NCBI GenBank assembly: GCA_036253495.1 | Contig: GCA_036253495.1_4125.1 | Length of the DNA stretch: 64,000 bases | Reading direction: 5' to 3' (one strand) | Source: a phage | Part shown: piece after piece, positions 2,430 to 28,967 of the stretch | How the letters are laid out: each line of letters starts with the position of its first letter | Position numbering within the stretch: position 1 is the stretch's first letter | The notes under the pieces: model-generated | Seen by the model: the letters and a program-made list of their open reading frames with translations, nothing else | Told to the model about the DNA's origin: nothing | Databases searched by the model: none | Translations under genes and position numbers: made by a program

Positions 2430-3059
2430 ATGTCAAATTACAAAAAACTAATGGAGTCTTCTTCTAAGGCTGAAGCAATGACTTTTATTAAACTCAACGA
2501 ATCCAATATCGAAAAAGCAGAAATTGTTTTGGCAGTTAAAGGTGAAATCGTTGATAAGCTACAACGTCAATCTGAAGTTATCAACAACATGGGCGTTGAC
2601 GTACTAGGCCCACTACTTGACCGTATCAAAGCTGAGCAAGGTCTAGATGCAGCAGAAAACTTTAAAAACAGCGTTAGTGGTTTACTACAACAAGCAGTAA
2701 CAACACTAATGGATGTTAAGGACAAGATCAGTACTGAAACTCTAAAGCTAACTGGTGATATCACTGATGCACCAGACGTATCCGATTTGGGTGCTGATGA
2801 GTTTGATGTTGATGTAACTTCTGAACCATCTTTTGATATGGGTGCAGATGCAGATTTCGAAGAAGACCTAATTTCAGAACCAATCCCAACCGAACGTGAA
2901 ATGAAAGAATCAGTACAATTCACAAAAATTGGTGTTGAGATGGAAAGTGTTCGTGGCACTATTGGTACTAAGTACTTCTCGAATAAAGCAGAAATGAATT
3001 CTTGGCTAACTGAAAACCAACACAAAATCAAAAAAGTTTTGGGCGTTGTGAAGAAATAA
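2430..3059 (+). CDS. hypothetical protein
   Basis: 209-aa ORF; predicted coiled-coil N-term, acidic middle. Confidence 0.55.
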   Translation: MSNYKKLMESSSKAEAMTFIKLNESNIEKAEIVLAVKGEIVDKLQRQSEVINNMGVDVLGPLLDRIKAEQGLDAAENFKNSVSGLLQQAVTTLMDVKDKISTETLKLTGDITDAPDVSDLGADEFDVDVTSEPSFDMGADADFEEDLISEPIPTEREMKESVQFTKIGVEMESVRGTIGTKYFSNKAEMNSWLTENQHKIKKVLGVVKK

Positions 3060-3069
3060 GGATATAATT

Positions 3070-3402
3070 ATGAAATTCAGTGATCTAACTGAAGATGCAC
3101 CACCAAAAGACATTCGCAACATGATCACATCTATTGCATTGTCTCTGGTATCTTCTGGTCGTGAAGAAGTGAATTTGCAATCCTTAATTTCCGAAATTAA
3201 AAAAAGAACTAACATCGACGTACCTTACAATGTGATGATGGATATTCTTAACACATTGCCATTTGTACAAGATGTTAATTCTGATATAGTGAAATTTGCA
3301 GGTGCTGATGGGGACACAAATCCATCACCTGATGGACAAGAAAATTCAGAAGAACAGGTTACCGACTGGGCTACTAAAGCTGCATCTGTGACTAAAGATT
3401 AA
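3070..3402 (+). CDS. hypothetical protein
   Basis: 110-aa ORF directly after upstream stop. Confidence 0.5.
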   Translation: MKFSDLTEDAPPKDIRNMITSIALSLVSSGREEVNLQSLISEIKKRTNIDVPYNVMMDILNTLPFVQDVNSDIVKFAGADGDTNPSPDGQENSEEQVTDWATKAASVTKD

Positions 3403-3450
3403 AAAAATTGAGACAAACAAAAATATAGTGCTATAATTAGGAGTACACGG

Positions 3451-4170
3451 ATGTACACACCACCGATTGTTAGCAGATATACTTATGTTGATTATAAAAG
3501 AATTGAAGGCGGCTCTGAAGGTCGCCTTTATTCTACTCCAACGGGTAATCTGCCGTCAGTAACAACAATACTTAGTGCCACTTCAGATAATGAAGGTTTG
3601 AAGAAATGGCGTGAGTTTGTTGGAGAAGAAAAAGCAAATGAGATAACGTTGGAAGCCTGTACTGTTGGTACTTTCATGCATGAAAATTTAGAATTCCGTT
3701 TGGAAGGTAAACCGGACCATGAAGGTGGAATGCCAATACGAGTTCTTGCACGAAAAATGGCTGATAAAATCCAGTCAGAAGCATGGCCTCGAATCAACGA
3801 GGTATGGGGTCAAGAAGTTCCTTTATTCTATGAAGGTTTGTGGGCAGGAACAACAGATTTAGTTGGTGTTCATGATGGTATACCTACGATAATGGATTAT
3901 AAAAACTCCCGAAAACTCAAAACATGGGAACATATTGAAAATTATCGTATGCAAATCGCCGCGTATGCATTAGCACATAATCAAATGCATGGTACTAACA
4001 TTGAGCGTGGTGTGATTTTTATTTGTGTAAGAAAAGATCCACAAAATTTACAATATCAAGAATTTGTTATTGAAGGACAAGACTTTAAAGACGCAGTTGA
4101 TATGTGGATTGGTCGTGTAGAACAATATTATATTTTACGTGGAGAAATTGAAGCCAATGGAGCAGCATAA
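3451..4170 (+). CDS. putative PD-(D/E)XK family nuclease (RecB/Cas4/YqaJ-like)
   Basis: 239 aa; AGGAG SD; motifs ...IMDYKNSRK... and QIAAYALAH (QxxxY) typical of RecB-fold exonucleases. Confidence 0.5.
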   Translation: MYTPPIVSRYTYVDYKRIEGGSEGRLYSTPTGNLPSVTTILSATSDNEGLKKWREFVGEEKANEITLEACTVGTFMHENLEFRLEGKPDHEGGMPIRVLARKMADKIQSEAWPRINEVWGQEVPLFYEGLWAGTTDLVGVHDGIPTIMDYKNSRKLKTWEHIENYRMQIAAYALAHNQMHGTNIERGVIFICVRKDPQNLQYQEFVIEGQDFKDAVDMWIGRVEQYYILRGEIEANGAA

Positions 4171-4717
4171 ACAAATGAAACAAGACTTATATATTATCAA
4201 AGCACTACGTAGTAAAGGTTATGAAATTGATGAAGTTATGGCAATGAGCATTGAGGAAATCGAAGCATTACCACTACCACAGCGTATCATTGAAAACGCA
4301 AAGGATTACAAAGCTCGTGGTGCTAAGCCAGTAGAAGTAATCAAAGAAAAGATTTTTGAAGATATTAGTGTAGATGAAGCATCTCGTAATGTTAAACCTG
4401 AAGTTATCGAAGAATACGTAGAAAATTCAGAAGATCAAGAAAAAGCACTAGAAGAAGTAAAACAAATTGTAGAAGAACAACAAGAATCTGTTGAATCCGA
4501 AGAAGATGTTGTTGTTATTGAGCGTATCGAAGCTTCCAAAGAAGATCTAGATATCATCAAAACTTCTCTACAATCAAAAGAACTAAAAACTGTAGCAGCA
4601 TATATCAAACACCTAAAAGCTGAAGTTCCAGAAGCAATTCTTGCAGCGGTTGATAGTTCAGTTGTATCTCGTTTAGTTAACGAGCGTATTGCTGAAGTAA
4701 AAGAAAATGCTAAATAA
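4139..4717 (+). CDS. hypothetical acidic protein
   Basis: 192-aa ORF; start uncertain (ATG at 4139, 4157 or 4175); glutamate-rich. Confidence 0.45.
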   Translation: MEKLKPMEQHKQMKQDLYIIKALRSKGYEIDEVMAMSIEEIEALPLPQRIIENAKDYKARGAKPVEVIKEKIFEDISVDEASRNVKPEVIEEYVENSEDQEKALEEVKQIVEEQQESVESEEDVVVIERIEASKEDLDIIKTSLQSKELKTVAAYIKHLKAEVPEAILAAVDSSVVSRLVNERIAEVKENAK

Positions 4718-4745
4718 TCCTATAATACTATAGGAGAACATTAGT

Positions 4746-5327
4746 ATGGCACAACAACAGATTGCGTTGCAGCAAATTAGAACTGGCAAACAGCGTGATT
4801 TACCAGATGCATTAGAAAAAGGTCAATTGGCATTCAGTACTGATGTAGGTCGTATGTTTGTTGGTTTACCTTCTTCATCTGACCCAGCTAGTATTGTAGC
4901 GGGTAGAACATGGGAAACTGACCCTAATTCTGGTAAAGAAAACGTGGAAATCATCACAGAATTTACCCCGTGGCAAACTGTTTCTAAAATTATAAATCGA
5001 CCATTCGTTTATGATTTACTTAAAGATGTAGAGACGTATGACATTTATATTCAAAGTCAAAGTCGTGTATTCGTTGATTACATTGCTTATAATACCAGTA
5101 ATACAATTCTTGAATCAGGAACTATTCAAATTGTAACGATTGGTGGAAACACTCTACTAACCCAATTTAACAATACCAACAGACCAGATGCTATTATATC
5201 TATTACATTCGAAAATCCAAGTTACGATGAACAAACTAAAAATATGAGTTTCACAGTTCGTAATAATGATTTTGCAGAATCAGGATATACTTTAGAATTT
5301 GTATACCGTGGGTGGGACAAACCTTAA
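4746..5327 (+). CDS. hypothetical protein
   Basis: 193-aa ORF; TATAAT-like box and GGAGA SD upstream. Confidence 0.55.
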   Translation: MAQQQIALQQIRTGKQRDLPDALEKGQLAFSTDVGRMFVGLPSSSDPASIVAGRTWETDPNSGKENVEIITEFTPWQTVSKIINRPFVYDLLKDVETYDIYIQSQSRVFVDYIAYNTSNTILESGTIQIVTIGGNTLLTQFNNTNRPDAIISITFENPSYDEQTKNMSFTVRNNDFAESGYTLEFVYRGWDKP

Positions 5328-5346
5328 AAGGCGTCCCGCCTTTTTC
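5327..5346 (+). terminator. intrinsic terminator
   Basis: GGCG-TCC-CGCC hairpin followed by TTTTT. Confidence 0.55.
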
Positions 5347-5406
5347 TTCCCCATAATTTTGCAGTACTAAATATTGAACTGAAATAATGAGTAACAAGGA
5401 TGATAA

Positions 5407-7725
5407 ATGATTAACGTAACCAAACGTGATGGTTCAAAGGAACCGTTGAATCTGGACAAAATTCACCAAATTTTATTCTTTTCGTGTGAAGGTCTAAGTG
5501 GTGTGTCTGTATCTGAAATCGAGATTAAAGCACAACTACAATTTTATGAAGGTATTGAAAGTAGTACTATTCATGATATTCTTATTAAATCCGCTGCTGA
5601 ACTAATCACAGAGGATACCCCGAATTATCAATACGTTGCTGGTCGCCTACTAAACTATAGTATTCGTAAGCAAGTATATGGACAATATGAGCCAATTAAA
5701 TATTCTGCTCATCTACAGGAGATGGTAGACACTAAGATTTATGATCCTGAAATCCTAGAAAAATACACCCTACAAGAAATCGAAGAACTGGGTAAGTATA
5801 TCAAGCATAAGCGTGATGACCGTTTCACCTATGTCGCAATGCGTCAATGGGAAGGGAAGTATTTGTGTAAGAACCGTGTAACCAAAAAGATTTATGAATC
5901 CCCGCAAATGGCATACATGACCATTGCCGCAATTATCTTTATGGGTTATGATAAAGACGTTCGTATGTCATATGTTAAGAAGTTTTATGATGCAATCAGT
6001 AACTTCGACATTAGTCTACCTACACCAATCATGGCTGGCTTACGTACTAATACACGTCAGTTTAGCTCATGTGTAGTACTAAACGTTGGTGATAGTCTAG
6101 ATAGTATTGGTTCATCAAACCATGCTATTTTGCGTTATATCTCACGCAAAGCAGGACTTGGTATCAACATGGGACGTATTCGTGCACTTGATTCTGAAAT
6201 CCGTGGTGGTGATGCAGTACATACTGGTTTGATTCCATTTATCGCAAGTACTGCAAAAACCGTTAAAAGCTGTTCACAAGGTGGTGTGCGTGGTGGTGCA
6301 GCAACTGTGCATTTCCCATTGTGGCATTTAGAATTTGAAAGTTTAGTTGTATTAAAGAATAACAAAGGTACTGAATTTAACCGAGTACGTCAACTAGATT
6401 ATTGTTTCCAGATTAATAAAACTTTATATCAACGTTTGGTTGATAATAAAAATATTAGTTTCTTTAGTCCTGGTGATGTTCCTGGGTTATATGAAGCATT
6501 CTGCTCTAACCAAAAAGAATTCGAGCGTCTATACAAGAAATATGAAGCAGACCCAAGTATTCGTAAGAAAGTGGTTCCAGCATTGGAAGTATTCAGTACT
6601 TTAATGCAAGAGCGTGCAGAAACTGGTCGTATCTATATTCAAAATATTGACCATGCAAATACGCATTCACCATTTGATGAAGTTGTTGCACCTGTTGAGC
6701 AATCCAACTTATGTCAAGAAATCGCACTACCGTCAGTGCCATTTGATGATATTAATAATGGTGATGGTCTAATTAGCCTATGTACTCTAAGTGCAATTAA
6801 CTGGGGTAATTTTGAAAATCCAGAAGATATGGAGTTGGCGTGTGAGTTGTCAGTTCGTGCATTAGACTCTCTATTAGACTATCAGGACTACCCCGTATTG
6901 CACGCAGAACGAGCTACAAACCTCTATCGTCCATTGGGTGTGGGTATCATTAACTTCGCTTACTTCTTAGCTAAGCGTGGCTTACGTTACGATTCTAAAG
7001 CATTGGATACCGTAAACACATGGACTGAAGCATGGTCATATTATTTGCTTAAGGCATCCGTCCAACTGGCAAAAGAAAAAGGCCGCTGTGAAGGTTTTGA
7101 AAATCTGAAATATGCAAAAGGTATTTTGCCTATCGATACCTATAAATCAGATATTGATGAATTAGTTTCTTCTGAGTTGAAACAAGACTGGGAATCATTA
7201 CGTGCTGATATCAAACAATATGGTATTCGTAACGCAACAACTATGGCATTAATGCCAGCAGAAACTAGTGCACAAATCAGTAATAGTACTAATGGTATCG
7301 AAAAACCGCGTTCGCTAGTATCACGTAAAATATCCAAAGATGGTATTTTGAAACAAGTAGTTCCTGAGATTGGTAAATTGAAGAATAAGTACGATCTACT
7401 ATGGGATCAAAAAGATAATATTGGTTATCTACAAATCTGTGGTATTCTTCAGAAGTATATTGATCAAAGTATTAGTGTCAACACTAGTTACAATCCTGAG
7501 CATTTCCCAGAAGGGAAATTACCAATGTCTACACTTTTGACCGAATTGATGTATGCGTACAAAGTAGGTCTTAAGAACCTTTACTATCATAACACCAATG
7601 ATGGTTCAGATGAAATCGACGTTGAGAAACTACTAAATGAATCAGCACCAAAAGAGAAAGGTGGTTTTGTATTACCTGACCTCACTGGAATGGATGCTGA
7701 TGACTGCGACAGTTGCAAAATCTAA
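5407..7725 (+). CDS. nrdA: ribonucleoside-diphosphate reductase large subunit (class Ia NrdA)
   Basis: 772 aa; N-terminal ATP-cone (VTKRDGSKEPLNLDKIHQIL), NLCQEI catalytic region, C-terminal CDSCKI redox cysteine pair; uninterrupted. Confidence 0.9.
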   Translation: MINVTKRDGSKEPLNLDKIHQILFFSCEGLSGVSVSEIEIKAQLQFYEGIESSTIHDILIKSAAELITEDTPNYQYVAGRLLNYSIRKQVYGQYEPIKYSAHLQEMVDTKIYDPEILEKYTLQEIEELGKYIKHKRDDRFTYVAMRQWEGKYLCKNRVTKKIYESPQMAYMTIAAIIFMGYDKDVRMSYVKKFYDAISNFDISLPTPIMAGLRTNTRQFSSCVVLNVGDSLDSIGSSNHAILRYISRKAGLGINMGRIRALDSEIRGGDAVHTGLIPFIASTAKTVKSCSQGGVRGGAATVHFPLWHLEFESLVVLKNNKGTEFNRVRQLDYCFQINKTLYQRLVDNKNISFFSPGDVPGLYEAFCSNQKEFERLYKKYEADPSIRKKVVPALEVFSTLMQERAETGRIYIQNIDHANTHSPFDEVVAPVEQSNLCQEIALPSVPFDDINNGDGLISLCTLSAINWGNFENPEDMELACELSVRALDSLLDYQDYPVLHAERATNLYRPLGVGIINFAYFLAKRGLRYDSKALDTVNTWTEAWSYYLLKASVQLAKEKGRCEGFENLKYAKGILPIDTYKSDIDELVSSELKQDWESLRADIKQYGIRNATTMALMPAETSAQISNSTNGIEKPRSLVSRKISKDGILKQVVPEIGKLKNKYDLLWDQKDNIGYLQICGILQKYIDQSISVNTSYNPEHFPEGKLPMSTLLTELMYAYKVGLKNLYYHNTNDGSDEIDVEKLLNESAPKEKGGFVLPDLTGMDADDCDSCKI

Positions 7726-23733: not shown

Positions 23734-26121
23734 ATGGCATCTTTTACCCCGTATTGGGATTTAAAGGCTGATACTCAATATATTCAAGAAGGAACTGACA
23801 TTCTTATTAGATTAAGTATCAATAAAGAAGGAACTACAGGTGATAGCTATACACTAAGTGAAAATGAATACTTAGAGATGATTTTCACTATACAATGTTT
23901 AGATAATGTTGGTAATGTTTTTAATGCTGAAACCCACTATTCATTATTTGTTGGAAATGACCCGAACAATCTAGTGCCATTATCTGATGGAACAACTGGA
24001 AATAAGTTTTTAAATGGAAGACATAAGTGTAGAATACAAAAGAATAATTTTTATCTTCCAAGTACAATAATCAGTGAAGATGTGTATTATTTAAAACTAC
24101 ATTGTAAGCGTGATGGTACATTTAACAACGTGGAAAGTGTTGTTTTCAATTTACAGGCTATTAACGTCATGCATTTTGGGAACATTTCACCATCAGGATT
24201 ATTGCGTGCCAACAAAGCAACTGTTACATTTGATAGTAAAGAAATATGGGTAACACCTGGATTAACTGTTACCGATGATGAACAGTTATATTGTATTGGA
24301 GACATAGAGTATGGTTCAGATAGTACTTTATTCATTCAAGGCTTCGGTCGTAAACGTCCGTATCAGCCAAATGTAGATAGTGCCGTTGACACCAGTCCAC
24401 GTGTATTCTTCCCCGCTTATCGCTTGCTTGATATAACAGAACAAGATTTACCGTCTCGACATATTACAGGTAAAGCAGCTTACTTACGTCCAGATGACTT
24501 AGCGTTTCCTGTGGACGGAATTAATAAAGAAGTTAAAGTTAATATAGTTGATGATACTGGTAAGATTACAAAAAGTGGGCTTTCTTTTAACCCGAATGGA
24601 CAATTCTTACAAACATTTTTACATGAATCAGAACCAACTGACGTTTACTTTAAGGTTGAAATCGTAGATATTCTCAAAACCTACATTACACTTGCTGAAC
24701 GTTTTGCTATTGATCAGCGTTTTAAAGCATATCAAATGTGGGTATGTCCAAACGATGTATCTACTATTGCTGCTACTGATGAAAAACCAAAACCTAATCA
24801 TTTATATCAATTAAGAGATAACGTTGTGTATCCATATGTTATTAGTGGTGAATATGATGAAGGTATGATCAAACCATTATTCAAAAGTTCTGATTGGAAT
24901 GATTTGGGTTATTATGATGTGTCATTGGGTAGTGGTATTATTGGTGAAAAGCGTATGTTCCGTTTCTTGGAAAACGCCGCTGAAGGTTCATCTATACAAA
25001 TAATTACCGATCCTGACTTGGGAACTATACACGTTGGGGAATACTTCGGTCATACAGTATATCCTCAAATACTTACTAATAGTAAGAATCAAGTATCTTG
25101 TGTATTAGTGGGTGGTGATGACATAACAAAATATGGATTAGATCTTACACCTGATGGGTATCTTGTAGGTACAGCATATGCATTAAGCACTGATTTTAGT
25201 GCCAATGATGATATAAAATTGAATTTCCAGGTTGAAGTTTATGACACTGAAGGTAGTAGTGTTATTGGTGATTTCAAATTAAAAATCGTTCGCGGGTTGG
25301 GGCAAAATCATTTGAGTTCACATATTGTTCCATCTGTTCAATTTGAACGTGAATGGTTTAAATGTATCAGTACTCAAACATTTGCTAATTTTGGTTTCCA
25401 TCGTCAATCTGATGACAGATATGGTTTACAGAAAGTTCCTAGGATTCTTCTAAAAGAAAACTTTGTTAGTCAAAACTATAATTACACTAACTTAAATGAT
25501 TTGAAAAAAGTTCTCCGTGAGAATATAATAGATCCATCAGGGGCGACAATCCCTAACGGTAAATTCAAGATGGTTATTGGTAATTACAAAATCATGTCAG
25601 CACTTGACAACAAAGGAAACCTTTTGTATGATTTAGTGTTTAGAGAGTTACATCCAGAAGGAACACAAGTTGCTGTTTCTACCAATCCCAGAATCTACAC
25701 AAACGTAGATAACGGACTACTTGCCGAATTATTTGGTTTACGCCAGAATATTTACAAGGCTGTCGGTGAAGACACAACCAACTTGGTAAAAGACCCAACC
25801 GACTTAGTTAACCGTGGATTGTATGTTGATGCTATACCCGGTATCAGTGATGAGATGATTGATACTGTTCCACGCTTCATGAATCATCCATACATTGAAG
25901 ATTGGATTGAGAAAAAATTTATGCCTATCATTCCAGTAGCATACTGCTTACCTGGTAAGGGTGAAGCGTTTTTCCAAATGTTATTACAAAACAACGAACA
26001 TAGTTCAATGGTTAGTACTGAATTTGAAGTAACAGCAGTTGAATTCGGATACTTTGCTCAAGAACATGAGCGTTATGTACATGATACATTTAGAATTGCA
26101 TTACAGAATGATATAATATAA
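23734..26121 (+). CDS. large hypothetical protein (795 aa), possibly late/structural
   Basis: Long ORF with GGAGA SD behind a late-type promoter box; no recognised motif. Confidence 0.6.
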   Translation: MASFTPYWDLKADTQYIQEGTDILIRLSINKEGTTGDSYTLSENEYLEMIFTIQCLDNVGNVFNAETHYSLFVGNDPNNLVPLSDGTTGNKFLNGRHKCRIQKNNFYLPSTIISEDVYYLKLHCKRDGTFNNVESVVFNLQAINVMHFGNISPSGLLRANKATVTFDSKEIWVTPGLTVTDDEQLYCIGDIEYGSDSTLFIQGFGRKRPYQPNVDSAVDTSPRVFFPAYRLLDITEQDLPSRHITGKAAYLRPDDLAFPVDGINKEVKVNIVDDTGKITKSGLSFNPNGQFLQTFLHESEPTDVYFKVEIVDILKTYITLAERFAIDQRFKAYQMWVCPNDVSTIAATDEKPKPNHLYQLRDNVVYPYVISGEYDEGMIKPLFKSSDWNDLGYYDVSLGSGIIGEKRMFRFLENAAEGSSIQIITDPDLGTIHVGEYFGHTVYPQILTNSKNQVSCVLVGGDDITKYGLDLTPDGYLVGTAYALSTDFSANDDIKLNFQVEVYDTEGSSVIGDFKLKIVRGLGQNHLSSHIVPSVQFEREWFKCISTQTFANFGFHRQSDDRYGLQKVPRILLKENFVSQNYNYTNLNDLKKVLRENIIDPSGATIPNGKFKMVIGNYKIMSALDNKGNLLYDLVFRELHPEGTQVAVSTNPRIYTNVDNGLLAELFGLRQNIYKAVGEDTTNLVKDPTDLVNRGLYVDAIPGISDEMIDTVPRFMNHPYIEDWIEKKFMPIIPVAYCLPGKGEAFFQMLLQNNEHSSMVSTEFEVTAVEFGYFAQEHERYVHDTFRIALQNDII

Positions 26122-26133
26122 TAGGAGAAAAAT

Positions 26134-26442
26134 ATGTTCAATCCATTTTTTGACCCTTCTGGTATGAGTGATAAAGAACTCCAACAAAAGATTAATGATC
26201 AAAGTTTACGTATTAGTTCCGCTCGTGCCGCTGGCTTGAGTGATTCTATCATTGGTAACATGCAAATAGTACTGAATCAGTGCTATGAAGAAATGACTTT
26301 ACGACAAGGTAGAAAAGAGAAAGACACATACGAAGATACTGATCCATGTATTTTTGATATGAATTCTTATCTATCAGATGAAGAGGATAGTAAAAAGAAA
26401 AATGAAAGTTCAAGGAAACAGATATATAAGTCCCAATGGTGA
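26134..26442 (+). CDS. hypothetical protein
   Basis: 102-aa ORF; 3' end overlaps next ORF in another frame. Confidence 0.4.
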   Translation: MFNPFFDPSGMSDKELQQKINDQSLRISSARAAGLSDSIIGNMQIVLNQCYEEMTLRQGRKEKDTYEDTDPCIFDMNSYLSDEEDSKKKNESSRKQIYKSQW

Positions 26443-26920
26443 TGTTAAATGTAATTTGAATGCTGTAGTTTATGCTATGAATTGTGGGTCTGATATACAG
26501 TACCTACAATTACAAGATATAGATGAACAAGAGCGTTTGAAGTTTAACGATAACTGTAAAAAATTTGGACTAGAGCAACGTATGTTGGATTATACAATTG
26601 ACCATGATAGTAATCATGAGTTATGGCGTTATGATCCAATGTATGACAATATCAATCTAAGAGAATTCTTTTTACAAAAGTGTTCCACACCTGAAGCAAG
26701 ACAGCGTGTGGAATACGAAATTGATTTATACGAACAATATAATATGACAAAGCTATTGCGTTGTATGATATGGTTGGTAGATTATATGGAAGAGCACAAC
26801 ATCTTCTGGGGCTTAGGGCGTGGTAGTTCTGTAGCCTCATATTGTCTGTTTCTGATTGGTTTGCATATGGTTGACTCATTGAAGTATGATCTCGATGTGA
26901 ACGAATTTCTGAAATGGTAA
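26402..26920 (+). CDS. hypothetical protein ending in a DnaE-like GRGSxxxS...D motif
   Basis: Start tentative (ATG 26402); C-terminal WGLGRGSSVASYCLFLIGLHMVDSLKYDLDVNEFL resembles the Pol III alpha palm GRGSAAGSLVAYALGITDVDP block (recall). Confidence 0.4.
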   Translation: MKVQGNRYISPNGDVKCNLNAVVYAMNCGSDIQYLQLQDIDEQERLKFNDNCKKFGLEQRMLDYTIDHDSNHELWRYDPMYDNINLREFFLQKCSTPEARQRVEYEIDLYEQYNMTKLLRCMIWLVDYMEEHNIFWGLGRGSSVASYCLFLIGLHMVDSLKYDLDVNEFLKW

Positions 26921-26978
26921 CGAAACATGTGATATAATGGTTGTTGTGACGTTATAGCACTTAGAAAAGGGATTTTAT

Positions 26979-27341
26979 ATGTCAAAACATACTACTTATC
27001 GTGGCACTATCATTGATATGGATATGCTAAAATATCAGAACCAACATCAGGTTGCATTGGGTAATGCTAAACTAAATGCTCGTGGTGATAAAATTGGTTC
27101 TGGTGGAACTGTAATTAAAACTCGTGAAGAACTACTTCAAGAGAAAGAACGTGAAATGCAAATTCCTGACTATATTCCAGAACATCAGGCACAAAGCACT
27201 GATTATTCTGATGATGGTTGGGATGATGCAAGCTTTGAAGTTGAGCATGTCGTTGTACAAAACGAAGAAACAGTTGATCCTTCAGTTGCACCTGAAGAGA
27301 AGAAAGCACCACGCAGAGCAAAAACTAAAGATCAGGAGTAA
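26979..27341 (+). CDS. hypothetical protein
   Basis: 120-aa ORF; extended -10 TGATATAAT about 40 nt upstream. Confidence 0.5.
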   Translation: MSKHTTYRGTIIDMDMLKYQNQHQVALGNAKLNARGDKIGSGGTVIKTREELLQEKEREMQIPDYIPEHQAQSTDYSDDGWDDASFEVEHVVVQNEETVDPSVAPEEKKAPRRAKTKDQE

Positions 27342-27346
27342 TACAA

Positions 27347-27670
27347 ATGTCTAAAGTTATGACAGCATGTAAGGGAAAAGTACTGGTTACTGATTTAGAA
27401 CATGGCGAACGAAAAACTGCTGGTGGAATTGTTTTAACAAATGATGACGGTAAAATTCGTGGTATTCGTTGTCGTTGGGCTAAAGTTTATTCAGTTGGTG
27501 AAGATATAACTGATATTAAAGAAGGTCAATGGATTCTTATTGACCACGGTCGCTGGTCCAGAACTATTGAGGTTGATGGTGTTCAATTAAACTTAGTTGA
27601 TTACCCAGCCGCAGTATCTTTGGTTTCCGATGAAGACCCACGTACTTCAGTACAAACATTTGGACGTTAA
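27347..27670 (+). CDS. GroES-like co-chaperonin (T4 gp31 functional analogue)
   Basis: 107 aa; KVLVTDLEHGERKTAGGIVLTNDDGK parallels the GroES mobile-loop region; AGGAG SD. Confidence 0.7.
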   Translation: MSKVMTACKGKVLVTDLEHGERKTAGGIVLTNDDGKIRGIRCRWAKVYSVGEDITDIKEGQWILIDHGRWSRTIEVDGVQLNLVDYPAAVSLVSDEDPRTSVQTFGR

Positions 27671-27680
27671 TTATAAAAGT

Positions 27681-27712
27681 AAGCTCGGAATATATATTCT
27701 GGGCTTTTTATT
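27681..27712 (+). terminator. probable intrinsic terminator
   Basis: Imperfect palindrome AAGCTCGGAATATATATTCTGGGCTT followed by TTTTTATTT. Confidence 0.5.
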
Positions 27713-27724
27713 TGGTTATATAAT

Positions 27725-27994
27725 ATGATTACAGATAATGATAAGTTTAGCTTTTCGGATATTCGACTTGTTTCAAAGAATAATAGATTTTTGTTTGAAG
27801 ATAGGAAGAATACCAAATATGTTTATGAAGTATCTCACGATGTATTTAAGCACTTACTTGTAGTTGCTGCAAATGCAAAAGCACGTGGCATTGACAATAA
27901 AGTAAATTCTTTTGACTATCTCTTTAATCAGTTGGAGATGACAGAAGACCTATTCACCGCACTACTATACCATCTATCAGATTGGACTCACTAA
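27725..27994 (+). CDS. hypothetical protein
   Basis: 89-aa ORF. Confidence 0.5.
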   Translation: MITDNDKFSFSDIRLVSKNNRFLFEDRKNTKYVYEVSHDVFKHLLVVAANAKARGIDNKVNSFDYLFNQLEMTEDLFTALLYHLSDWTH

Positions 27995-28013
27995 TTTACA
28001 TGAGGAATAATAA

Positions 28014-28967
28014 ATGACTACACTATGGACTGAAAAATATCGCCCACAAACCCTAGAAGATTACGTTTTCAAAAATGATGCTCTTCGTAAAAAGATGGAA
28101 GAATGGATTTGTACTGGCAATATTCCACATATTGGATTCTTTGGTCCCGCTGGTACAGGAAAAACTTCAGCGATTAAAGTACTACTAAATGGACTTGAAG
28201 CTAATGGTCACCTGGACCCAAGTGATGTAACAACTCTAAACATGTCAGATGAGGGTATTGATGCTGTGCGTGATAAGATTGACGCAGCCGCAAAACTATC
28301 ATGTTTTGGACGTTATCGTGTGTTTGTTCTGGAAGAAATGGAACAGATGAACCACAAAGCACAAGGTAGCCTGAAGCGTGTAATGGAAGATTATCACGAG
28401 AATGCTCGTTTTATTCTAACCAGTAATGAGCCACATAAAATTTTGAAACCTATTATTTCTCGTGTGCAAGTAATTACAATCGAGAAGCATGATATGGAAC
28501 AGTTTATGACCCGTATCATCAACGTACTGTTAGCTGAGGGTGTAGATTTATCATCAGAAGAAAGTATTGATCAAGTGCAGCAATACATCAATGCATCGTA
28601 CCCTGACTTCCGTAAAACATTAAACGTATTGCAGAGTTCAGTAGTTGATGGTAAACTAGTAAAACTAGAAGACAGTATTGAGAATTCTGCTGGGTATCGC
28701 ACGGCAATCGTTGATGCATTAAAGGCGGGAAACATTCGTCAGATGCGTGAGCAGATTGTTCAAAATATCCCTGATGACGAAATGGATGCATTTTTCTCGT
28801 ATCTGTATCGTAATGCAGAAATGTTCAGTACTGATGAAATCACACTAATGAAAATCAAGGTTAAAATCCGTGATGCAGTTGTCAAACAATCAACAGTTTC
28901 TGATCGTGAGATGAACCTGAGTGCATTACTATGTGAAATTGACTTGATTTGTTCAGGAAATATGTAA
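28014..28967 (+). CDS. 44: sliding-clamp loader AAA+ subunit (T4 gp44 / RFC small-subunit-like)
   Basis: 317 aa; EKYRP box, Walker A GPAGTGKT, DEAD-like LEEMEQM, sensor ISRVQV, PDFRKT. Confidence 0.85.
   Translation: MTTLWTEKYRPQTLEDYVFKNDALRKKMEEWICTGNIPHIGFFGPAGTGKTSAIKVLLNGLEANGHLDPSDVTTLNMSDEGIDAVRDKIDAAAKLSCFGRYRVFVLEEMEQMNHKAQGSLKRVMEDYHENARFILTSNEPHKILKPIISRVQVITIEKHDMEQFMTRIINVLLAEGVDLSSEESIDQVQQYINASYPDFRKTLNVLQSSVVDGKLVKLEDSIENSAGYRTAIVDALKAGNIRQMREQIVQNIPDDEMDAFFSYLYRNAEMFSTDEITLMKIKVKIRDAVVKQSTVSDREMNLSALLCEIDLICSGNM

Follow-up and report, generated by a model that had tools for sequence, protein, structure and literature searches.

Probable N-terminal subunit of a two-piece, minimal DNA polymerase III alpha-like enzyme of T4-like jumbo phages

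Introduction

Bacterial DnaE, the polymerase III (Pol III) alpha of the C family, is a single chain of about 1160 residues. In cyanobacteria, it is split over two distant genes, the products of which are joined by a natural split intein. A "minimal split DNA polymerase III alpha" was predicted for the group 2.2 jumbo phages by Iyer, Anantharaman, Krishnan, Burroughs, and Aravind (2021, Viruses 13:63; PMC7824862). They described two stand-alone units with genes far apart, an N-terminal one that binds NTP and a C-terminal one that binds Mg2+ and the template (here N-unit and C-unit); the phages concerned also possess a family B polymerase. In the literature that we searched, no experimental test of this split enzyme was found.

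The roles of the residues that matter here have been described for the E. coli alpha subunit, partly by cryo-EM (bioRxiv 10.64898/2026.06.29.735100). When DNA binds, palm residues 271-393 remain rigid, whereas the part bearing D401 and D403 moves. D401, D403, and D555 are the metal ligands, and K553 contacts the primer terminus (the K553A variant is dead). The GS motif is found at no more than 4 A from the incoming dNTP, and activity is lost in the R362A variant; R390 also contacts the dNTP, its replacement by alanine lowering the efficiency 27-fold. Finally, the RPG motif touches the templating nucleotide, and the F...H motif is located in the pocket of the nascent base pair.

The stretch of phage DNA considered here (64,000 nucleotides, contig GCA_036253495.1_4125.1, hereafter the window) contains, on its + strand at 26402-26920, a gene for a protein of 172 aa. 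The window stems from an Asteriusvirus jumbo myophage; a megablast search with positions 25500-28500 gave 99.3% identity to Escherichia phage A4 (ON286972.1) and about 78% identity to 121Q, PBECO4, and relatives. The gene corresponds to A4_84 of phage A4, and we read its product as the N-terminal (dNTP-binding) subunit of a two-piece, minimal C-family (Pol III alpha/DnaE-like) nucleotidyltransferase of the T4-like group 2.2 jumbo phages, with a probability of roughly 0.85.

Compared with the system of Iyer et al., nothing essential is different, and RaK2- and 121Q-type phages carry both units. An N-unit of about 170 aa ends before the Mg2+-binding strand, a distant C-unit is present in A4, the two units co-occur, and a family B polymerase (in A4) and an RFC-like clamp loader (in the window) accompany them. 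Since the same split enzyme had been predicted in 2021, the identification of the N-unit is a correct re-discovery. What we add is a residue-by-residue comparison with the E. coli cryo-EM study of 2026, the replacement of R390 by Glu, selection statistics, the size of the family in metagenomes, and the gene blocks. Also added are the position of the split at the boundary near residue 393 and the occurrence of an intron or homing endonuclease at the same spot in other phage dnaE genes, as well as two features shared by three genera, a 41-nt overlap of the N-unit with an upstream ORF and a TGnTATAAT element behind the N-unit stop.

The N-unit and its relation to the DnaE palm

The N-unit reading frame runs from ATG 26402 to a TAA stop at 26918-26920 (+ strand). 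The mechanically called frame begins further upstream, at ATG 26378, yielding a version of 180 aa; the start at 26402 is supported because the homologues are almost all 172 aa long. The coordinates agree with those of A4_84, which is annotated in A4 as "DNA polymerase III alpha subunit". A strong Shine-Dalgarno sequence proper to the N-unit was not found.

The preliminary description of this locus had pointed to a resemblance between the C-terminal block of the protein and the nucleotidyltransferase block of Pol III alpha and Pol-beta. Profile searches and structure prediction bear this out. The N-unit matches Pfam PF07733 (Pol III alpha NTPase/palm) with E=1.3e-9 and 38.5 bits (gathering cut-off 23.9), whereby residues 100-179 of the 180-aa version cover profile positions 16-95 of 260 only. 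In hhalign comparisons, residues 97-172 align with E. coli DnaE 319-396 (E=2.9e-6), and a small DnaE profile is matched with a probability of 97.7% (E=1.8e-12). When a family profile built from 50 members was compared with the PDB, the sole match was Taq Pol III alpha (E=0.0067). [quoted passage not shown] Because this homology to the Pol-beta-like block of the DnaE palm is real, the coincidence that had also been considered for the resemblance is excluded.

The structural model (AF2, pLDDT 86.8) is helical past the first ~17 residues and has no palm beta-sheet. A Foldseek search of the PDB with this model returned DnaE or PolC for all ten top matches, each of them weak (best E=0.08, TMq 0.44). 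Residues 1-95 are specific to the family, with W75 as the only invariant position; no DnaE counterpart was found for them by sequence, and the Foldseek alignments over this region are poor (rmsd above 10 A).

The C-terminal block WGLGRGSSVASYCLFLIGLHMVDSLKYDLDVNEFL (residues 136-170) contains the GS motif R140-G141-S142 (26819-26827, + strand, codons CGT GGT AGT), which is invariant in 50 out of 50 aligned members and equals R362-G363-S364 of E. coli in an ungapped hhalign register. More broadly, a GxGRGSSVxS...EF block is invariant in the alignment of these 50 members. The protein closes with E168-F169-L170-K-W-stop (26903-26920, + strand), a conserved end that equals E. coli 390-392; the tails following EFLK are variable and 0-7 residues long. 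The terminus lies at the equivalent of E. coli residue ~392-394, immediately ahead of the strand with the catalytic D401/D403 and about nine residues short of their position, in agreement with the earlier remark that the frame stops right after the block. The fission point thus falls on the boundary between the rigid and mobile parts of the palm, at residue ~393.

With regard to membership of the C-family Pol III alpha enzymes, the N-unit has the GS motif and PF07733, whereas Arg390 is not kept and the triad D401, D403, and D555 is not in this polypeptide (it sits in A4_42, described below). The column of Arg390 is occupied by E168 (codon 26903-26905), and Glu is present there in all 50 family members examined. 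This replacement suggests that triphosphate binding may be changed or, alternatively, that basic residues ahead of the DIDID motif in the C-unit may compensate for it; the C-unit consensus just before that motif reads K-A-x-T-DIDID.

Conservation of the N-unit

The N-unit gene is under strong purifying selection: compared with 121Q, RaK2, and GAP32, its dN/dS is 0.03-0.075, with dS saturated. At 90% clustering, 140 homologues were found, ranging from 89% down to ~38% identity, many of them encoded on contigs 300-520 kb long. Of the 120 listed, nearly all measure 166-187 aa, and a few are shorter and fragment-like. A profile search of 1.84 billion representatives yielded 479 clusters (50% identity) at E<=1e-30. 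Among the best 150 of 3008 profile matches, all are stand-alone proteins of 157-196 aa that end at the last profile position, and no fused "Rosetta-stone" chain of N- and C-unit was seen. As a separate observation, Escherichia phage CMSTMSU (MH494197.1, ~229549-229962) shows an N-unit tblastn match in two places (81% covered, 64% identity), which may reflect a faulty assembly or a copy that is interrupted or frameshifted.

The catalytic partner, A4_42

In the flanking frames, where the preliminary description had proposed to look for further polymerase-like segments, none were found, and the catalytic half turned out to be a separate gene outside the window. A Pfam search of the larger unannotated ORFs and HMMs of both families detected no C-unit within the 64-kb window, and a phmmer search with E. 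coli DnaE against all A4 ORFs recovered only the N-unit. The partner came to light when A4 was scanned for a DxD motif with [KRH]xD[hydrophobic] further on. It is A4_42 (ON286972.1 242008-242646, 212 aa, annotated as "hypothetical" in A4); its distance from the N-unit in the A4 genome is ~31 kb, which puts it upstream of the window, ~4.4 kb before position 1. A partner gene is presumed for the phage of the window too, by its near-identity with A4 (99.3% over the 3 kb compared). The HMMs of the N-unit and C-unit families each find one ORF across the A4 genome plus the window. The C-unit family counts 592 homologues, and the 120 listed, which have no Pfam domain, are almost all 190-220 aa long.

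The invariant residues of the C-unit are D16, D18, D20, K80, D82, R149, P150, K152, H190, and Y194. D16/D18 correspond to D401/D403 of E. coli, K80/D82 to K553/D555, and R149-P150-G151 to R639-P640-G641, while F186...H190 equals the helix-loop-helix motif F756...H760 (FKKxH). The register of K80/D82 and of R149-P150-G151 is set by an hhalign comparison with a DnaE profile (E=1.6e-4). Against the PDB, the C-unit profile has a single sequence match, M. tuberculosis DnaE1, which is marginal (E=0.21) and consists of four colinear motif blocks: DIDID pairs with PDIDIDF, GYxKxD...RPxK with GLLKMDFLG...RPGP, and FKKxHAxAY with FNKSHAAGY. The match to the Pfam finger domain is likewise marginal (E=0.19). 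The AF2 model of A4_42 has a pLDDT of 94.1 and a pTM of 0.81, and in a Foldseek search of the PDB, each of the top ten matches is a DnaE structure, seven of them with a probability of 1.00 (E from 2e-3).

The C-unit is strongly reduced compared with E. coli alpha. From DIDID to KxD, it has 61 residues versus about 150 in E. coli, the thumb being missing, and from RPG to F...H it has 36 versus 116, lacking most of the index finger. Ahead of DIDID, the family has 0-16 variable residues, and some members begin directly with M-DIDID. No PHP, beta-clamp-binding, or OB domain was detected by Pfam in either unit.

Another A4 protein annotated as "putative nucleotidyltransferase" (A4_502, ON286972.1 118284-119525, outside the window) was considered as a partner and rejected; it belongs to the RlaP RNA-repair family, which is Pol-beta-like (E=2e-17).

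Co-occurrence and gene neighborhood

By tblastn, 96 phage records contain the C-unit and 124 the N-unit; the surplus is largely full-length DnaE of Streptomyces, Bacillus, and Clostridium phages. Both units are common to Asteriusvirus, Alcyoneusvirus, GAP32, CBB, PA5oct-like phages, Atu_ph07, SCTP-2, Xoo-sp13, and RAS14, and they also occur in Yersinia, Erwinia, Serratia, and Xanthomonas jumbo phages. A4 contains one copy of each; across the phages, the distance between them ranges from 14 to 182 kb. RefSeq labels the genes of both units as "DNA polymerase" in 121Q, RaK2, GAP32, and others.

The N-unit start overlaps with a + strand ORF of 102 aa (26134-26442) in another frame, as the preliminary description had correctly seen; the overlap measures 41 nt. 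This ORF, of unknown function, has no Pfam match and a dN/dS of 0.26-0.47; it is unannotated in A4 and annotated in 121Q, RaK2, and GAP32. When the locus was compared in these three related phages, both the N-unit and the 41-nt overlap proved to be kept. Judged from the arrangement of the reading frames, the overlap fits co-transcription and perhaps coupled translation. The conserved C-terminal KKNESxRKQIYKSQW of the 102-aa ORF may reflect dual coding with the start of the N-unit.

Directly 3' of the N-unit stop lies an extended -10-like element, TGATATAAT (26930-26938, + strand), a consensus match only. TGnTATAAT recurs at the equivalent position in 121Q, RaK2, and GAP32, and it is counted 12 times on the + strand of the whole window. 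A second extended -10-like element, also TGATATAAT, is situated at 26109-26117 (+), upstream of the 102-aa ORF.

The next gene, Y (26979-27341, + strand), encodes an uncharacterized 120-aa protein that contains the motif ALGNAKLNARGDKIGSGG. This gene is a conserved neighbor, following directly 3' of the N-unit in A4, 121Q, RaK2, GAP32, PA5oct (E=4e-15), and Atu_ph07 (E=7e-8), and it could be a further partner in the replication module. Further on come a Cpn10/GroES-like protein (27347-27670, +) and, as the last gene of the block, an RFC/gp44-like clamp-loader ATPase (28014-28967, +). The order N-unit, Y, Cpn10, (Z), clamp loader is conserved from the E. coli phages to PA5oct and Atu_ph07. On the side of the C-unit, a structural gene and then a primase gene and a gene annotated as helicase follow 3', an arrangement that is also conserved. 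With the N-unit beside the clamp loader and the C-unit beside primase and helicase, each would be part of a conserved replication module.

A4 also encodes a complete family B polymerase with an exonuclease domain, as well as a DnaQ-like exonuclease. The latter is of the DnaQ/RNase T type (ON286972.1 236862-237680; Pfam RNase_T, E=6e-14), lies 4.3 kb upstream of the C-unit, and is annotated as "putative DNA polymerase III epsilon subunit". It is a candidate for the proofreading of the mini Pol III, given that no PHP or exonuclease domain is detectable in the two units.

A two-piece enzyme and its alternatives

On this reading, the split cuts through a Pol-beta-like nucleotidyltransferase core, after the GS motif and ahead of the DxD strand. 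Neither protein can be a complete enzyme. Most probably, N-unit and C-unit associate noncovalently and rebuild one Pol-beta-like active site between them. We infer a noncovalent heterodimer since there is no space for split-intein halves and no detectable intron. Such a heterodimer would act as an auxiliary DNA polymerase alongside the family B replicase of the phage.

Several other readings have to be weighed against this two-piece enzyme. One would see in the N-unit the decaying remnant (a pseudogene fragment) of a former full-length dnaE, as had been suggested before. Its frame does break off inside a Pfam domain, at profile position 95 of 260, and it overlaps the upstream ORF while having no strong Shine-Dalgarno sequence of its own. 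A decaying gene, however, would hardly keep a dN/dS of 0.03-0.075 with saturated synonymous sites, nor a length and end point that are fixed in nearly all homologues (89% to ~38% identity) and in 479 clusters. Moreover, apart from the C-unit, dnaE-like sequence is absent from the flanking frames and from the rest of the genome, and we consider this idea as good as excluded. A self-sufficient minimal nucleotidyltransferase (MNT-like, with a Pol-beta fold), which had been another suggestion, fares only slightly better. What stands of it is the invariant, dNTP-binding GS motif typical of the Pol-beta-like superfamily. However, the protein ends before any DxD/DxE strand, its model is almost all helical and has no palm beta-sheet, and the carboxylate triad resides in the co-occurring C-unit. 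Since it has no catalytic carboxylate strand, the N-unit cannot be a complete enzyme, and self-sufficiency is very improbable. It is no more credible that the halves are rejoined into one chain by a split intein or RNA trans-splicing, for which the naturally split, intein-joined cyanobacterial DnaE and the group I intron or homing endonuclease at the same site in other phage dnaE genes could be quoted. Intein halves need roughly 100 and 35 aa, whereas the tails available here measure 0-7 residues in the N-unit and 0-16 in the C-unit. For 25500-28500, the part behind the N-unit stop included, a search with Rfam (E<=1) returned no intron. Moreover, 14-182 kb lie between the two genes, and in A4 the C-unit is upstream of the N-unit.

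A more serious objection accepts the pair as real and questions its being a templated DNA polymerase. It could be a specialized nucleotidyltransferase (for tailing, priming, gap-filling, or making a small nucleotide product), or the N-unit could be a noncatalytic factor or decoy directed at the host Pol III or replisome. The absence of the thumb, most of the index finger, the beta-binding motif, OB, and PHP speaks for this, as do the exchange of R390 for Glu and the complete family B replicase, with its exonuclease domain, that the phage already owns. Having lost the thumb, most of the fingers, and the regions for clamp binding, the pair need not be able to copy a template processively, and it may use another substrate. 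On the other hand, the contacts to the templating nucleotide (RPG) and to the base-pair pocket (F...H) are invariant, which argues for template-directed synthesis, and both genes are situated within replication modules. On balance, we regard a nonpolymerase role as unlikely, yet deserving serious attention.

Relation to other DnaE enzymes and origin of the split

The jumbo-phage enzyme shares with bacterial DnaE/PolC the palm segment with R-G-S (in the N-unit) and the Asp triad, K553, RPG, and F...H (in the C-unit). Unlike these single-chain enzymes, it consists of two polypeptides that lack PHP, thumb, ring and little fingers, the beta-binding motif, and OB, and R390 has become Glu. Like the cyanobacterial DnaE, it is split into distant genes, but the split site differs and intein halves are absent, so re-association must be noncovalent.

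Interruptions close to the same site are found in other phages. In Clostridium phage CS266P1 (dnaE locus examined, 3032-6600), an ORF for an I-HmuI-like HNH endonuclease lies between ...RFMRKEKKKLP and (M)DIDVDF. No Rfam intron was detected in this gap, so the CS266P1 gene may itself be a fission. The dnaE of Bacillus phage vB_BceM_WH1 (locus examined, 2960-7158) is annotated in three pieces, the first gap coming right after PDVDTD. Compared with the full-length group I intron model of Rfam, both gaps give matches below the gathering score (E=9e-5 for the first, 7.5e-6 for the other), and this dnaE is presumably spliced. In both phages, the interruption and the fission point of the jumbo phages are no more than a few codons apart, but the DnaE is full-size and its pieces are adjacent. 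The DxD site looks like a hot-spot for mobile elements, and the jumbo-phage split may have begun as the insertion of such an element. Taking this one step further, the heterodimer could be a working second DNA polymerase of the PolB-based replisome (e.g., for one strand or for primer hand-off), arisen by HEG or intron insertion at the DxD hot-spot that led to a permanent fission at the palm hinge near residue 393. We put this forward tentatively, as a possible but doubtful extension.

Significance

A fitting annotation for the gene is "N-terminal subunit of a split Pol III alpha-like enzyme", instead of "DNA polymerase III alpha subunit" or a fragment. The residue map and the partner gene make reconstitution straightforward. 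If the two-piece reading is true, a split replicase-type site with no thumb, PHP, clamp-binding, or OB parts would represent a minimal C-family core. The jumbo phages would then harbor a bacterial-type polymerase module within a replisome that is otherwise of the T4/archaeo-eukaryotic type (PolB, RFC-like). Should the heterodimer moreover be a working second polymerase, as ventured above, no smaller core of a C-family polymerase would be known, and it would offer a natural example of a Pol-beta-fold active site made of two pieces.
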